Positions 57,463 to 64,000 of a DNA stretch of 64,000 nucleotides are shown here, one piece after another. The translations under genes and the position numbers were made by a program. How positions within the stretch are numbered: the stretch's first letter is position 1; the number at the start of each line of letters is the position of its first letter. The notes beneath the pieces were generated by a model. It was not told the origin of the DNA. It saw only the letters and a list, made by a program, of their open reading frames with translations, and searched no databases. Source of the stretch: Bacilli bacterium (GTDB lineage: Bacteria > Bacillota_I > Bacilli_A > RF39 > UBA660); assembly GCA_017409785.1 (NCBI GenBank), contig JAFQSD010000004.1, positions 48,663 to 112,662 of the forward strand. The letters run 5' to 3'.

Positions 57463-57502
57463 ATTTTTATAGTATAATAAAAATGAATTGTTGGAGGTAC
57501 CT

Positions 57503-58639
57503 ATGAATAAAGAAATATATTTTGATAATAATGCCACAACTAAAGTAGATGAATCAGTACTAAATGAAATGTTACCATATCTAAAAGAACAATATGGTAA
57601 TCCGAGTAGTACATACTCATTTGGCAAAAATATAAAAGATAAAATTACTAATATTAGAAAGAACATTGCCAAACTTATAAACGCAGATTATCAAGAAATA
57701 ATCTTCACAAGTTGTGCAAGTGAAAGTAATACAACTGCAATTATGAATGCAGTAAAATCTAATCCAAATAAAAAACATATTATAACTACTAAAGTAGAGC
57801 ATGCATCTATTCTTGAAACATGTAAACACCTAGAAAAAGAAGGATATAGAATTACTTACTTAAATGTTGATAGTCAAGGAAAATTAGATTTAAAAGAATT
57901 AGAAAGTTCTATTACTGAAGATACATTATTGATTTCAATAATGATGGCCAACAACGAATTAGGTAATATTTACCCAATAAAAGAAATAGGACAAATAGCT
58001 AAAAACAACAATATTTTATTTCATTGTGATGCGGTGCAGGCCATAGGTAAAGTAATAGTTGATGTTAAAGAAATGAATATAGATACTTTATCTTTATCAG
58101 GTCATAAAATTCATGCTCCAAAAGGAATAGGTGTTTTATACGTAAAAAAAGACATAGAATTTAATCCTTTAATATTTGGACATCAAGAAAACAATCGTCG
58201 TGGAGGAACAGAGAATGTTCCATATATCATTGCTATTGGTAAAGCAATAGAAAACATATTAAATGATCCAGAATCAAATATAAACATAAAGAAACTACGA
58301 GATGACTTAGAACAAAAAATTATAACTAATATAGAAGACGTTAAAATATATGGAGATAAAGAAAATAGATTACCCAATACATTAAATGTTGCTTTCAAAG
58401 GAGTAAATGCAGAAGAATTATTATTAATGCTAGAATCATTTAATATTTTTGTTTCAACTGGTTCAGCTTGCAATTCTGAATTAGCAGAACCATCACATGT
58501 ATTAGTTGCATGTAATGCAGACTTAGAAAACTATAGCCCAATTAGAATAAGTTTAGGAAAATATAATACTGAAGAAGAAATTGATTTCTTCTTAAAAAGA
58601 TTAATAACAATAGTAAATATGATTAGAAGGAGAAAATAA
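57503..58639 (+). CDS. nifS: NifS/IscS-type cysteine desulfurase (class V aminotransferase)
   Basis: IYFDNNATTKVDESVLNEMLPYLKEQYGNPSS, LSLSGHKIHAPKGIGVLYV (PLP lysine), STGSACNS (catalytic Cys loop). Start at MNKEIY after ggagg. Confidence 0.85.
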   Translation: MNKEIYFDNNATTKVDESVLNEMLPYLKEQYGNPSSTYSFGKNIKDKITNIRKNIAKLINADYQEIIFTSCASESNTTAIMNAVKSNPNKKHIITTKVEHASILETCKHLEKEGYRITYLNVDSQGKLDLKELESSITEDTLLISIMMANNELGNIYPIKEIGQIAKNNNILFHCDAVQAIGKVIVDVKEMNIDTLSLSGHKIHAPKGIGVLYVKKDIEFNPLIFGHQENNRRGGTENVPYIIAIGKAIENILNDPESNINIKKLRDDLEQKIITNIEDVKIYGDKENRLPNTLNVAFKGVNAEELLLMLESFNIFVSTGSACNSELAEPSHVLVACNADLENYSPIRISLGKYNTEEEIDFFLKRLITIVNMIRRRK

Positions 58640-58640
58640 A

Positions 58641-59246
58641 ATGCCAGTAGTAGTAAATTTTAAAATATGTGATAATGCTAAAGAATGTGGTGGAGTAGCA
58701 GTATGCCCAACAGGAGCCTATACATATGATGAAGAAAAAGAAACAATTGTAATTGATAATGACAAATGCATTTCTTGTGGATTATGTGAAAGAGAATGTC
58801 CAATAGGTGCAATTATGGTTGCAAAGACCAAAGAAGAGTATGAAAAAATAAAAGAAGAAGTGGATAATGATCCACGTACAACAAAAGATTTATTTGTAGA
58901 TCGCTATGGAGCAGCACCACTATCAGAATTCTTTATGATTGAAGAAACCGATATAGAAGAAAAAACTAAAAGTCAAGGACTAACTCTAATAGAATTCTAC
59001 AACGATGATTCAATTCAATGTTTATTAAAATCTATTCCGATTAAAGAACTAACAAATTCTTTCCCAAAAGACACTTTGTTTTATAAAGTTGATGTTACAG
59101 AAGAAACAATGAATAAATATTCTATTGAAGAATTACCTGCATTACTAGTATTTAAAAATAAAGAACTTTTAGGAAAAATTGATGGTTACTTTGAAAATGA
59201 TCATAAAGAAGAATTAATAAGTAAATTAGCTGAATTTATTAAATAA
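58641..59246 (+). CDS. fusion of a 2x[4Fe-4S]-type ferredoxin domain and a thioredoxin-fold domain without CxxC
   Basis: CDNAKECGGVAVCPTGA and CISCGLCERECPIGA. The C-half LIEFYNDDSIQC...LPALLVFKNKELLGKIDG is thioredoxin-like but lacks the redox CxxC. It starts 1 nt after the nifS stop. Confidence 0.6.
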   Translation: MPVVVNFKICDNAKECGGVAVCPTGAYTYDEEKETIVIDNDKCISCGLCERECPIGAIMVAKTKEEYEKIKEEVDNDPRTTKDLFVDRYGAAPLSEFFMIEETDIEEKTKSQGLTLIEFYNDDSIQCLLKSIPIKELTNSFPKDTLFYKVDVTEETMNKYSIEELPALLVFKNKELLGKIDGYFENDHKEELISKLAEFIK

Positions 59247-59248
59247 TA

Positions 59249-59280
59249 TGTTATAATATGAAACATTTAGGGGGATTCAT
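59249..59280 (+). promoter_or_regulatory. extended -10 promoter plus short leader (module P3)
   Basis: TGTTATAAT at 59249-59257, then atgaaacatttaggggga before the ATG at 59281. It shares a 17-nt identical stretch (atgttataatatgaaa plus context) with P1. Confidence 0.55.
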
Positions 59281-60075
59281 ATGAGCAAATTATATATTCA
59301 AAATTTAGCACCAATAATAACAGAGCGTTGCAATTTAAAATGTATGCATTGTATGCGTGGAACTGCAACATCAAAGGATATGAAAGATGAAGTTATAGAA
59401 CAACTAGGCCAAATAGATTCAATAGGAAATATAACTATCTGTGGAGGAGAACCTACTTTAGCTTTACCTACATTAGAAAAGTTACTAACATTTATTGTGG
59501 ACAATCATATTGGATTAGACACTCTAACAATGACAATAAATGGTACAAACTATAGTGAAGAATTATTAAGATTATTAGATTATATTGATGAATATATTCC
59601 TAAAAGAAAATATGATGTAAACGCTTTCTTTGGTATATCAAAAGATCCATTTCATGTAAGAGAATTAAAAGATAGAGGTCAAATTGATACATATGTAGAT
59701 AATGTAACTAAATATGTTGAAAGTCCACATTTTCTAGAATATCGTGAAATAGATAAAAAACTATTTAGAGAGGGTAGAGCAGAATCACTTGATCCAAGAA
59801 TTACTATACCTCTAAATCCATGGCCAATAATTTATACATATTTAAAAGAACATGATGTAACAGAAGTGGGACCATTAGTAGCAATTAACCCAGATGGAAT
59901 AGTTACTGAATGTGATGCTTCTTTAGAACATCAAAGAACATTATATAATTATGGAAATATTTTAGAAGAAGATTTAGAGTTAATTATAAAAAGAGTAGGA
60001 GAAGAAGTATCTCCAAGAACATGGTATAGAAAAACTGGAAAAATAATAAAAAAACAAATTAATTACAACAAGTAA
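59281..60075 (+). CDS. small radical SAM protein, unknown substrate
   Basis: ITERCNLKCMHCMRG (CxxxCxxC) and ICGGEPTL (SAM-binding GGE). It is 264 aa with no SPASM-type extra Cys cluster. Confidence 0.7.
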   Translation: MSKLYIQNLAPIITERCNLKCMHCMRGTATSKDMKDEVIEQLGQIDSIGNITICGGEPTLALPTLEKLLTFIVDNHIGLDTLTMTINGTNYSEELLRLLDYIDEYIPKRKYDVNAFFGISKDPFHVRELKDRGQIDTYVDNVTKYVESPHFLEYREIDKKLFREGRAESLDPRITIPLNPWPIIYTYLKEHDVTEVGPLVAINPDGIVTECDASLEHQRTLYNYGNILEEDLELIIKRVGEEVSPRTWYRKTGKIIKKQINYNK

Positions 60076-60119
60076 AGATATCAAAATTTGCAAAAACAAT
60101 AAACTTATGTTATAATTAA

Positions 60120-60345
60120 GCCAGTTAATTAAAAGACGACTCATTCAAAGTAATTATTTTATAATGTTTTATAGAGAGTTTGTGGTTATGTGGAAACAAA
60201 CAAAAATAAAATAATGAATTACAAGTGATGATTTTAATCGGAGAAGTCCGTTATCAAAATAAGGTAATAAACTATTATTACAAATAAAGGTGGTACCACG
60301 AGCATTTCGTCCTTTTGGATGAAGTGCTCTTTTTATTTTCAAAGG
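60120..60345 (+). promoter_or_regulatory. T-box riboswitch leader (Tyr specifier) for tyrS
   Basis: Promoter TGTTATAAT at about 60107. AGAGAG box (tatagagagtt). Candidate specifier UAC followed by A at 60220-60223. T-box aaataaaGGTGGTACCACGagc at 60283-60304. Terminator gagcatttcgtcc-tttt-ggatgaagtgctc plus a T-run. Confidence 0.85.
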
Positions 60346-60356
60346 AGGTGATTTGT

Positions 60357-60455
60357 ATGGATAGTGACTATTACTATTATTACTTTGATGATTGTAATTT
60401 AATTAACTATACAAATTATTTAGGAGGAAATAAAAATGAAAAAGAAATTATTTGA
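60357..60455 (+). CDS. candidate 32-codon Tyr-rich upstream ORF (MDSDYYYYYFDDCNLINYTNYLGGNKNEKEII)
   Basis: Perfect SD AAAGGAGGTGA lies 6 nt upstream. It has five consecutive Tyr codons and 7 Tyr in total. The frame runs across the tyrS SD and ATG and stops 17 nt into tyrS. Confidence 0.35.
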   Translation: MDSDYYYYYFDDCNLINYTNYLGGNKNEKEII

Positions 60456-61674
60456 TATTCTCAAAGAAAGAGGATACATAAAAGATTTAACACACGAACA
60501 AGAAATTATTGATTTATTGAATGGAGAACCATTTACATTTTACTTAGGAATTGATCCGACAGCAGATAGTCTACATATTGGTCATTTCTTTGCCTTAACA
60601 ATGTTTAGATGGTTACAAGATTTTGGACACAAAGGTATTGTCTTAGTTGGAGGAGCAACAGCCCTAATAGGAGATCCGACTGGAAAAAGTGATATGAGAA
60701 AAATGTTATCAAAAGAAGAAGTTGCTCACAACAAAGCTGAAGTAAAAGAATTAGTAAAACGTTTTGTAAAAACAGATGGAGATAATCCTGCAATTATTGT
60801 AGATAATGCAGATTGGATTTCTGATAAGAATTACATAGACTTTATGAGAGACATTGGAGTACACTTCAATGTCAACAATATGCTCCAAGCAGATTGTTAC
60901 AAAAAACGTCTAGAAAATGGTGGATTAACATTCCTAGAAATGGGCTACATGTTAATGCAAGCATTTGACTTTGTACATCTAAATAAAGAATTTGGTTGTA
61001 AACTACAAATAGGTGGTTCAGACCAATGGGGTAATATTATTGCTGGAGTAGACTTATCTAGAAAAATAGGATTTAGTGAAGGTAAAAAAATAGACCCATT
61101 ATTTGGTTTAGTATGTCCATTACTAATAAAAGCAGATGGAGAAAAAATGGGTAAAACAGCAACAGGTACACTATGGGTATCTAGAGATAAAACATCTACA
61201 TTTGAATTTTTCCAAGCATGGATGAATTCATTTGATGAAGATGTTGAAAGAAGTTTATCTTTCTTCACAAGAATGGAAATAGAAGATATAAAAGAACTTT
61301 GCAAAAAAGATATTAGAGAAGCAAAAAAACTTCTGGCTTTCGAAGTAACAAAATTAGTTCATGGTGAAGATGAAGCTATTAAAGCCAGAAAAACATCAGA
61401 AGAACTATTTAGTAATAAAGGTATTTCTGATAACATGCCAAGTATAACTTTATCTAAAGATAAATTAGATATTAATATAGTCGACTTATTAGTAGAAACA
61501 AATCTAGTAACATCTAAATCTGAAGCAAGAAGACTAATAGAACAAAATGGTATAAGTATAAATCAAATAAAAGTAAATAGTGTTAATGATTTAATAACAA
61601 AAGAAAGTTTAACTGAAAACTTTATAATTATTCAAAAAGGTAAAAAAGTATTTTTAAAAGTTATATTTGAATAA
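60436..61674 (+). CDS. tyrS: tyrosine--tRNA ligase
   Basis: GIDPTADSLHIGH (HIGH), KMGKT (KMSKS variant), and a C-terminal S4 domain (SKSEARRLIEQNGISIN). Confidence 0.95.
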   Translation: MKKKLFDILKERGYIKDLTHEQEIIDLLNGEPFTFYLGIDPTADSLHIGHFFALTMFRWLQDFGHKGIVLVGGATALIGDPTGKSDMRKMLSKEEVAHNKAEVKELVKRFVKTDGDNPAIIVDNADWISDKNYIDFMRDIGVHFNVNNMLQADCYKKRLENGGLTFLEMGYMLMQAFDFVHLNKEFGCKLQIGGSDQWGNIIAGVDLSRKIGFSEGKKIDPLFGLVCPLLIKADGEKMGKTATGTLWVSRDKTSTFEFFQAWMNSFDEDVERSLSFFTRMEIEDIKELCKKDIREAKKLLAFEVTKLVHGEDEAIKARKTSEELFSNKGISDNMPSITLSKDKLDINIVDLLVETNLVTSKSEARRLIEQNGISINQIKVNSVNDLITKESLTENFIIIQKGKKVFLKVIFE

Positions 61675-63187: not shown

Positions 63188-63480
63188 TATAATTAGAACC
63201 ATCACAAAACCAGTGCGAGGAAGAAGTAGAAAAGTAAAAGCATTTTAGAGAACTCTGTTAGGTGAAAAAGAGGATGTAATGACTTTTTGAACATGGCCCT
63301 CAAGGGTGAATGGCTGAAACTTTAGTAAGTCATTACAGGTGTGCCTGTTACAGCACAAGCCTATAACTATGCAAAAGACATAAGTAGGTTAGCGAGTTTA
63401 GTACAGTAATGCACTATTAAATAAGAGTGGTAGCGTGATATATATTCACCTCTTAGGATTTTTTCCTAAGAGGTTTTTTG
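63188..63480 (+). promoter_or_regulatory. T-box riboswitch leader (probable Met specifier) for metG
   Basis: -10 TATAAT at 63188-63193. AGAGA box (ttttagagaac). Stem I gtaatgact/agtcattac. Candidate specifier AUG at 63293-63295. T-box agaGTGGTAGCGTGat at about 63424-63438. Terminator acctcttagga-ttttt-tcctaagaggt plus T6. Confidence 0.8.
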
Positions 63481-63503: not shown

Positions 63504-64000
63504 ATGAAGAATATATTAATAGGAATATCTTGGCCATTTGCAAACGGAGATTTGCATATAGGCCATGCAGCAAGTAGTTTGCCAGGAGATGTTATCGCAA
63601 GATATCATCGATTAAAAGGAAATAATGTAATATTAGTATCAGGGAGTGATTGCCATGGCACTCCAATTGATGTTAAAGCATTACAAGAAAACAAAAGTGC
63701 CAAAGAAATAGTCGATCTTTGTCATGAAAATTTTACAAGAGACTGGAAAAATCTAGGAGTAAGTTTTGATCTCTATAACAGAACAGATGATGAATACCAT
63801 AAAAACTTTGTAAAAAAACAATTTAAAAAATATTATGAATATGGTTATCTTTATGAACAACAAGAAGAACAACTATTCTGTAGTCATTGTAATTTATTTT
63901 TAGCTGATCGTTACATAGTAGGAGTATGTCCGAAATGTGGTTCTAATATTAAAGGAGATGAATGTGAGAAATGTGGAAGTCTTTTAGAAATAAAAGATGT
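63504..64000 (+). CDS. metG: methionine--tRNA ligase, C-terminus outside the window
   Basis: It is not in the ORF track because it runs off the end. MKNILIGISWPFANGDLHIGHAASSLPGDVIARYHRLKGNNV (HIGH), GSDCHGTPI, and zinc knuckles CSHC...CPKCG...CEKCG. Confidence 0.9.
   Translation, partial: MKNILIGISWPFANGDLHIGHAASSLPGDVIARYHRLKGNNVILVSGSDCHGTPIDVKALQENKSAKEIVDLCHENFTRDWKNLGVSFDLYNRTDDEYHKNFVKKQFKKYYEYGYLYEQQEEQLFCSHCNLFLADRYIVGVCPKCGSNIKGDECEKCGSLLEIKD

Follow-up and report, generated by a model that had tools for sequence, protein, structure and literature searches.

The T-box is generally regarded as an RNA that senses the ratio of charged to uncharged tRNA unaided, and the family as described has, to our knowledge, no coding component. 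We know of a single T-box that is backed by a leader peptide with cognate codons, that of rtpLP, and this case has been taken for an oddity of tryptophan regulation in Bacillus. In the at operon of Bacillus subtilis, a T-box specific for tRNA(Trp) is followed by the leader peptide rtpLP upstream of rtpA, the gene for anti-TRAP, such that a T-box is combined with a cognate-codon leader peptide that controls translation (PMC2311275; Chen & Yanofsky, Science 2003 and Mol Cell 2004, as cited in PMC10327191 and PMC4027176). Here, we describe a tyrosine-specific arrangement of this kind in front of tyrS, the gene for tyrosyl-tRNA synthetase (TyrRS), in a 64,000-nt stretch of contig JAFQSD010000004.1 (assembly GCA_017409785.1, positions 48,663 to 112,662; hereafter, the window) from an uncultured gut Bacilli bacterium of the UBA660 lineage (RF39). 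An upstream open reading frame (uORF), which begins directly after the terminator of a Tyr-specific T-box and runs into tyrS, is a conserved and almost certainly functional element and is most likely a second, ribosome-based sensor of Tyr-tRNA supply. The initial annotation of this DNA took the combination of a T-box with a leader peptide to be undescribed, a claim that rtpLP-rtpA contradicts (PMC2311275); the tyrS uORF would introduce no new principle but would be a second case, one that extends tandem sensing of tRNA charging beyond rtpLP. In the limited literature collection consulted, no published description of a Tyr leader peptide of tyrS, or of a uORF after a tyrS T-box, was found.

The tyrS and rtpLP leaders share a common plan. 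In both, the T-box governs transcription, and a short ORF with its own Shine-Dalgarno (SD) sequence and consecutive cognate codons stands before the structural gene, an organization suited to two-level, tandem sensing of the charging of one tRNA; in both, a ribosome that finishes the leader ORF would come to cover the downstream ribosome-binding site (RBS). They differ in that the amino acid is Tyr, not Trp, and the target is the synthetase itself, not the TRAP regulator. The tyrS leader has 24-49 codons, compared with 10 in rtpLP, with the cognate run at codons 4-9, and usually ends inside the downstream gene. Moreover, the tyrS uORF is surrounded by a conserved long hairpin and by a helix between the terminator U-tract and the tyrS RBS, features for which we know of no counterpart in rtpLP. 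Because amino acid, length, and host gene all differ, we expect no homology between the two, and the resemblance appears to be one of logic only.

Other described systems resemble parts of the tyrS leader. With translational attenuation of the erm/cat type (ermC), it shares a leader ORF inside an RNA structure, an early stall in which is proposed to expose the downstream RBS and may stabilise the mRNA; for tyrS, this likeness is one of predicted structure. Unlike in ermC, the signal would be a lack of charged tRNA at cognate codons instead of an antibiotic acting together with a nascent peptide, and the leader is predicted to be a two-state rod that opens or closes, rather than to swap 1:2/3:4 pairing for 2:3, with only partial masking of the tyrS RBS in the predictions. 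The attenuators of trpL, pheL, hisL, and E. coli pheST likewise have a short ORF with a run of cognate codons and use ribosome speed as the signal, and pheST also encodes an aminoacyl-tRNA synthetase. In contrast to these classical transcription attenuators, however, no terminator/antiterminator lies 3′ of the tyrS uORF: the hairpin at 60346-60421 is not followed by a U-tract, and because the only terminator is that of the T-box, upstream of the uORF, the uORF cannot act on transcription termination. Lastly, whereas the translational T-boxes of Actinobacteria sequester the SD directly in the T-box fold, the tyrS leader would do so by way of the uORF.

A tyrosine-rich uORF between the T-box and tyrS

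The upstream half of the leader is an ordinary Tyr T-box with a terminator (Table 1). Its match to RF00230 is full length (1-219), and the score of 93.1 bits lies just above the gathering score of 93. The specifier is cognate, with the loop GAA-U-UAC-A at 60216-60223 found in the same context in relatives and in L181, a locus in which the downstream gene is not tyrS (see below), and the T-box sequence motif GGUGGUACCACG is followed by an intrinsic terminator that competes with the antiterminator. The uORF that follows lies in the +1 frame, overlaps tyrS by 20 nt, and crosses both the SD and the ATG of tyrS before reaching its TGA. It contains seven Tyr residues, five of them consecutive, and this run agrees in amino acid with the T-box specifier as well as with tyrS. 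Re-reading and translation confirmed all coordinates of the initial annotation, namely, those of the SD, the ATG, the 32 codons, the seven Tyr, the Tyr run, the tyrS overlap, and the stop.

Strings of Tyr codons might be expected in DNA of this composition. In all six frames of the 64 kb, however, the uORF run is the sole run of at least five Tyr, with only 0.05 runs of the (TAY)x5 kind expected per window in first-order Markov simulations, and the 11-nt SD AAAGGAGGTGA occurs once on the + strand. Chance is therefore an inadequate explanation for the uORF; the case made earlier against an accident of AT-rich DNA is borne out by these counts, as well as by the conservation in relatives described below. 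An alternative code in which TGA encodes Trp, which would abolish the uORF stop, is ruled out: the 49 tiling ORFs of the window have no TGA in frame and 1133 out of frame, and TGA is a genuine stop in the source organism. As for stop usage, the 49 long ORFs of the window end in TAA (36), TAG (11), and, rarely, TGA (2).

On the + strand, a simple scan found no other promoter-like or terminator-like site between the T-box terminator and tyrS, which speaks against an internal promoter or a second terminator in the uORF region. Public gene callers had already predicted the peptide as an 'unknown' or 'hypothetical protein' (e.g., CCX36478.1), and by exact look-up the window peptide is present on 45 contigs and a related peptide on 204. 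Small ORFs carrying such names at this position should be annotated as leader peptides. The enzyme encoded downstream is itself poor in Tyr, which makes up 5 of its 412 residues (1.2%) compared with 5.2% across the 49 long ORFs. This depletion suggests selection for translation during Tyr scarcity and fits an enzyme that is needed when Tyr-tRNA is scarce.

Table 1. Features of the tyrS leader (positions in the window)
Feature	Position	Strand	Remarks
Promoter-like site TTGCAA-17-TGnTATAAT	60088-60116	+	Drives the T-box leader; simple scan
T-box leader RNA (RF00230)	60127-60317	+	Rfam, 93.1 bits
Specifier codon UAC (Tyr)	60220-60222	+	Rfam alignment
T-box intrinsic terminator	60300-60339	+	13-bp stem at 60300-60329, then U-tract TTTTTATTTT
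P0, 5′ strand	60330-60340	+	Terminator U-tract; predicted pairing with 60426-60436
uORF SD AAAGGAGGTGA	60341-60351	+	Strongest SD in the window
P1, 5′ arm	60346-60360	+	3′ part of the uORF SD, spacer, and AUG; folding
uORF	60357-60455	+	ATG at 60357; 32 codons and TGA at 60453-60455; translation MDSDYYYYYFDDCNLINYTNYLGGNKNEKEII
Apical stems P2/P3	60362-60405	+	Tyr-run codons pair with the FDDC codons; the Tyr run is one strand of P3
Run of five Tyr codons (TAT TAC TAT TAT TAC), codons 5-9	60369-60383	+	Proposed stall site
P1, 3′ arm CUAUACAAAUUAUUU	60407-60421	+	Ends one base 5′ of the tyrS SD
tyrS SD AGGAGG	60422-60427	+	
P0, 3′ strand	60426-60436	+	Last GG of the tyrS SD and the spacer up to the A of AUG
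tyrS, tyrosyl-tRNA synthetase, 412 aa	60436-61674	+	Pfam tRNA-synt_1b and SYY C-terminal/S4

Conservation of the uORF

A comparison of tyrS leaders in related genomes, proposed with the initial annotation as a check on the uORF, was carried out on 80 loci, one genome per species, selected by TyrRS homology only. In 23 of them, the interval from the Tyr T-box terminator to tyrS retains the uORF with its SD, ATG, MD(S)D prefix, and Tyr run. The window matches L001, a metagenome-assembled genome (MAG) of an uncultured Bacilli bacterium from deer colon, whose TyrRS is 98% identical to that of the window. In L001-L020 and L034 (TyrRS 73-98% identical), this SD and ATG come next after the terminator and open a uORF that begins with MD(S)D and four to six Tyr codons and extends across the tyrS SD. 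A shorter version of the uORF is found in L025 and L030 (TyrRS 66-69% identical), and L021-L024, L026-L029, and L031-L033 have no uORF, the T-box terminator there abutting the tyrS SD. In 21 aligned leaders, the SD sequence AGGAGGTG and ATGGAT are invariant.

With metagenomes added, the distinct leaders composed of a T-box and the uORF number 69. The metagenome set was chosen by the pattern of SD, ATGGAT, and three Tyr codons, and is thus informative on the other leader positions but not on those three features. Across leaders, the Tyr run always begins at codon 4 or 5 and is three to six codons long. From the SD to codon 20, most close relatives are 95-100% identical, compared with only 55-70% at third codon positions of tyrS. 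The frame remains open across the tyrS SD in 62 of the 65 standard leaders, such that the absence or disruption of the uORF in close relatives, which had been named as evidence against it, was not found.

Predicted structure of the leader and accessibility of the tyrS RBS

The uORF is enclosed in a predicted rod-like hairpin composed of P1 and the apical stems, which is joined by P0 when the terminator is included in the folded sequence (z = −4.0 for the hairpin alone, z = −7.6 with the terminator). Apart from the T-box, no Rfam family covers the hairpin, also when the E-value threshold is used. The same architecture of P1, apical stems, and P0 is the minimum free energy (MFE) structure of every standard leader tested and also of the divergent L165 and L181, and P0 has at least 9 bp in the MFE structure of 65 of 65 leaders tested.

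Compensatory changes from G-C to A-U in the P1 3′ arm are present in L018, L092, and L165. Among 20 genomes, two compensatory pairs were counted, a number reached or exceeded in 43 of 500 shuffles. In a covariance-model alignment of 64 distinct sequences, 91.8% of cells are paired, compared with 45-59% in slid controls, and there are 10 compensatory pairs, compared with 4.8 ± 1.1 in shuffles, none of 500 of which reaches 10. For P0, matched partners are more stable than mismatched ones (−6.65 vs. −6.14 kcal/mol, permutation p ~0.0005), an excess that probably reflects few independent events.

Accessibility of an RBS was taken as the predicted free energy needed to expose positions −16 to +2. 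The tyrS RBS of the window costs 8.6 kcal/mol in the free leader, 4.35 kcal/mol with a ribosome footprint on the first Tyr codon, and 7.1 kcal/mol with a footprint on the second. For 64 leaders, the corresponding values are 7.6 ± 1.7 kcal/mol when free and 4.15 ± 1.3 kcal/mol when stalled at the first Tyr codon, and relatives lacking the uORF have 3.7 kcal/mol. The RBS of the uORF itself costs 15.3 ± 2.2 kcal/mol in the folded leader. These predictions suggest that the uORF start would be locked once the P1 3′ arm exists, with initiation being mainly co-transcriptional, and that the short, length-conserved MDSD prefix would place a ribosome stalled at the first Tyr codon atop the P1 5′ arm.

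Natural variants

The leaders of relatives vary in ways that bear on how the uORF may work. In most leaders, the uORF ATG and the tyrS ATG are 73, 76, 79, 82, 85, or 88 nt apart, which places the uORF in the +1 frame, and such uORFs stop at a TGA inside the tyrS codons TTT-GAT, the stop found in most relatives. Frame 2 variants stop at +27 and +45, and in L003, a frame 0 variant, a TAA falls within the SD spacer. Counted from the tyrS ATG, the stops lie at −7, +7, +10, +13, +19 (the commonest), +27, +45, and +76. Crossing of the RBS is missing from L166 (a premature stop), L183 (rearranged), and the type fused in frame. The sequences argue that the exact stop position is not required, only the crossing of the RBS. 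Because the uORFs of different relatives terminate in different frames with respect to tyrS, all three being used, their C-terminal tails are unrelated, which argues that it is the act of translation that matters and not the peptide product.

Seven leaders of the short type (L025, L030, L113, L152, L155, L178, and L186) have the Tyr-run ORF continuous with the tyrS frame, and a second SD and ATG follow it. This short form reads MD(S/G)(D/E)YYY followed by about 11 codons (L025, 2938-2992), with YDY in place of YYY in L030, and leaves two possible starts. The T-box leader with a nearly identical uORF also precedes a different TyrRS subtype of 395-396 aa in L089, L091, L095 (793-2087), L110, L158, and L184. 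Overall identity of this subtype to the TyrRS of the window is 36%, whereas the C-terminal S4-like domain reaches ~70%; the catalytic domain is a different one, as if recombination had exchanged it while the leader stayed in place. Here too, the uORF crosses the start of the gene, with stops at +7, +10, or +13.

A divergent variant is L181 (3399-5237; leader 45% GC), from an organism of higher GC content. There, a Tyr-specific T-box (107 bits, specifier UAC) is followed by an SD, an ATG, and MDPDYYY with 18 further codons, in frame with a Pfam Beta_elim_lyase gene whose product resembles tyrosine phenol-lyase or tryptophanase. It is speculative, but induction of this lyase by the T-box under Tyr starvation would be sensible if the enzyme runs in the synthetic direction. 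In L086 (2280-2610), the reading frame of the first 12 uORF codons (MDSDYYYYYFDD) continues into coding sequence of another kind, which includes ADYKIPQVMR and may resemble that of a queuosine-salvage (DUF2419-like) protein; this arrangement is probably a rearrangement or a chimeric assembly.

A proposed translational attenuator on top of the T-box

The reading that we prefer is that the uORF is a translational attenuator placed behind the transcriptional control of the T-box. First, uncharged tRNA(Tyr) would pair with the UAC specifier and let RNA polymerase pass the terminator, as is established for T-boxes and presumed here. A pioneer ribosome would then bind at the uORF SD, which is very strong, while the 3′ arm of the hairpin is still to be transcribed. 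When charged tRNA(Tyr) is scarce, this ribosome would stall with the first Tyr codon (codon 5) in the A site, covering the P1 5′ arm; with P1 blocked, the weak P0 would lose its support, the tyrS RBS would open, and TyrRS, which as a protein poor in Tyr codons should be translatable during scarcity, would be made repeatedly. When charged tRNA(Tyr) is adequate, the ribosome would cross the tyrS SD and AUG and terminate 17-19 nt into tyrS, upon which the leader would fold into the rod, locking the uORF start and leaving the tyrS RBS partly masked. Any transcripts leaking past the terminator or outliving starvation would then be poorly translated, and transient occlusion by the passing or terminating ribosome may add to the masking. 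That the translated leader ORF senses Tyr-tRNA(Tyr) after the T-box in this way, with tyrS expression depending on two successive readings of tRNA(Tyr) charging, is in our estimate an even chance.

Several points weigh against this mechanism. The data show the sequence features, how they are conserved, and a predicted structure with some covariation; from these, we infer translation of the uORF, stalling at its Tyr codons, and the direction of the effect on tyrS, and re-initiation of the terminating ribosome at tyrS, that is, positive coupling, could be an alternative outcome. In the simple footprint model, relief comes only from a stall at the first or second Tyr codon, a footprint on later Tyr codons of the window leader leaving the cost at 8.6 kcal/mol. 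The masking is modest, since 45 other genes of the window have 5.1 ± 3.5 kcal/mol and tyrS is only about one standard deviation higher, and it is weak or absent, without relief by the stall, in L005 (2.4 kcal/mol), L172 (2.5), L199 (5.3), and L165 (8.1 vs. 7.8 when stalled). Covariation is limited, in that the sequences are very similar and related and the alignment was partly fitted to the model. P0 is an A/U-rich helix of a kind that easily arises in a genome of 27% GC, the Tyr run sits in an apical stem such that part of its conservation could be structural, and the short fused leaders of the L025 type largely lack the large hairpin.

A wider proposal, which we put forward tentatively and at somewhat less than even chances, is that the T-box and a pioneer-round uORF, the start of which is locked after full transcription, form a portable Tyr cassette with two checkpoints. 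The cassette would have moved between its present downstream genes, namely those of two TyrRS subtypes and of a tyrosine phenol-lyase-like enzyme, or been retained before them. In it, the supply of charged tRNA(Tyr) would be probed by the first, co-transcriptional ribosome alone, and its stalling would leave the next RBS accessible. On this view, this would be the first aminoacyl-tRNA synthetase under both a T-box and a cognate-codon leader peptide, with a structural design not described for rtpLP.

Alternative explanations

The explanation offered in the initial annotation was pure ribosome occlusion, as in rtpLP: ribosomes completing the uORF block the initiation region of tyrS, those stalled at Tyr codons leave it free, and the hairpin is not regulatory. 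The crossing of the tyrS SD in nearly all standard leaders, the position of the Tyr run ~40 nt 5′ of that SD, outside the footprint of a stalled ribosome, and the experimental precedent of rtpLP (PMC2311275) all agree with it. However, the conservation of synonymous sites and of a covarying hairpin is left without explanation, and a steady flow of occluding ribosomes is unlikely when the folded uORF RBS is predicted to be locked (15 kcal/mol). The stop position, moreover, varies among leaders. In the seven fused short leaders and in L181, ribosomes that start upstream would make the downstream protein and so cannot repress it; given that they would themselves make TyrRS in the fused tyrS variants, pure occlusion is hard to reconcile with these. 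We therefore hold occlusion as the whole explanation to be unlikely. Of the earlier interpretation, the conserved uORF and its reading as a leader-peptide sensor of Tyr-tRNA stand as the best account, whereas the conserved hairpin at the uORF start and tyrS RBS was overlooked and occlusion on its own fits the fused variants poorly.

Positive coupling would reverse the sign of the effect. In this scheme, ribosomes attracted by the strong uORF SD unwind the leader on their way and re-initiate at, or read into, tyrS, which raises TyrRS synthesis, and the Tyr run either ties this boost to residual Tyr-tRNA or senses nothing. The overlap with a strong tyrS SD is a geometry that suits termination-re-initiation, the in-frame fusions resemble the end point of such a course, the valS T-box leader of relatives also has a uORF with a strong SD and no clear cognate run, and re-initiation from leader genes has been published as a general hypothesis (PMC4833913). 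Yet TyrRS synthesis would drop just when the T-box raises transcription, and the Tyr-depleted enzyme suggests selection in the opposite direction. Loading alone would not need the length (3-6) and position (codon 4 or 5) of the Tyr run that are kept in every lineage, and the Met T-box of the same genome has no uORF. Coupling is thus quite improbable.

The rod-like hairpin could also be an RNA-only element, a site of processing, stability, or protein binding, with the ORF and its Tyr codons being an untranslated by-product of a stem of UAU/UAC repeats. Such an element would account for conservation at the nucleotide level, including synonymous sites, and for the location of the 3′ half of the SD, the AUG, and the Tyr run within helices, and changes in the length of the run could be trinucleotide slippage. 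It does not account for the SD, ATG, MDSD, and Tyr codons that persist in L025-type leaders without the large hairpin, nor for an AUG and SD that stay constant while their pairing partners change. The codons also correspond to what the T-box recognizes and the enzyme uses, and in L181 to a gene of Tyr metabolism, and the frame across the tyrS SD has survived several independent indels. We regard this explanation as very improbable.

In Bacillus, a ribosome halted in an erm leader makes the mRNA more stable, and T-box leaders undergo processing close to the terminator. A ribosome stalled on the tyrS uORF, not far from the 5′ end of the read-through or processed transcript, might likewise block 5′-to-3′ or endonucleolytic decay, as in ermC-type leaders, and raise TyrRS through the lifetime of the message. 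The direction of regulation and the sequence features would be the same as for the translational attenuator, and the stall site lies near the 5′ side of the message. Nevertheless, stabilisation leaves unexplained why the P1 3′ arm abuts the tyrS SD and why the U-tract is complementary to the tyrS spacer, and it may act alongside attenuation, not as an alternative to it; as the sole explanation, it carries very little probability.

It is extremely unlikely that the uORF encodes a functional small protein or the precursor of a ribosomally made and modified peptide (RiPP): the upstream gene at 59281-60075 has a CxxxCxxC radical-SAM motif and a Pfam Radical_SAM match, and the peptide contains Tyr and Cys and was called as a protein, but that gene adjoins the uORF only in the same species (L001) and at no other locus among ~200, which rules out a precursor of the neighbouring radical-SAM enzyme, the uORF tracks the T-box and tyrS instead, and the C-terminal third of the peptide is unconserved and shifts frame among relatives, with the conserved middle coinciding with arms of the RNA helix.

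Other leaders and neighbouring genes

The window contains a second T-box at 63204-63456, which scores 92.3 bits, below the gathering score of 93, and is missed by the default Rfam search. Its specifier is AUG (Met), its terminator directly abuts the SD of metS (ATG at 63505), and no uORF follows it. This rules out a post-terminator uORF as a habit of every T-box in this genome, an idea that is partly true for valS in relatives. In three of these (L188, 457-800; L119; L120), a Val T-box (specifier GUA, 109.7 bits) has a terminator that directly precedes a strong SD and a conserved 12-codon uORF, MKFIFKGDYVRV or MKYKIWGDHGRV, each followed by a stop. This uORF has only one or two Val codons and stops ~45-50 nt 5′ of the valS SD. 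The valS leader sequences suggest that post-terminator uORFs recur in this clade.

A different kind of leader precedes tyrS in 12 Clostridia-like genomes (set B; TyrRS ~60% identical): L045 (2710-2995), L046, L051, L052, L057, L063, L065, L066, L068, L070, L071, and L073. No Rfam T-box was found upstream of their tyrS at the gathering threshold. The leader has a promoter, an SD, and a 15-codon ORF of the form M..LFA..SYYYYYI before its stop, followed by sequences capable of 1:2, 2:3, and 3:4 pairing, the last with a U-tract. By its layout, it is a classical Tyr leader-peptide transcription attenuator, distinct from the T-box uORF element, and no published description of it was found in the limited literature collection. 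Farther 3′ of this attenuator lie another terminator-like hairpin and another small conserved ORF, which is MFFRKTYALMGV-like.

Upstream of the tyrS T-box, the window encodes at 57488-60075 a class-V aminotransferase/cysteine-desulfurase-like protein, a ferredoxin-thioredoxin fusion, and a 264-aa radical-SAM protein. In other species, these genes are unlinked to the tyrS leader.

Significance

The leader of ~110 nt offers a compact test system for the combination of ribosome-based and RNA-based tRNA sensors, and its natural variants differ in the number of Tyr codons (three to six), in which of the three frames the stop lies, in whether the uORF is fused to the gene, and in the gene that follows, which is swapped in some; leaders of relatives that lack the uORF can be compared with these. 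The presence of a Tyr version before the synthetase in a whole clade of uncultured, small-genome gut Bacilli suggests that double-checking of tRNA charging, at transcription and again at translation, is a recurring solution.

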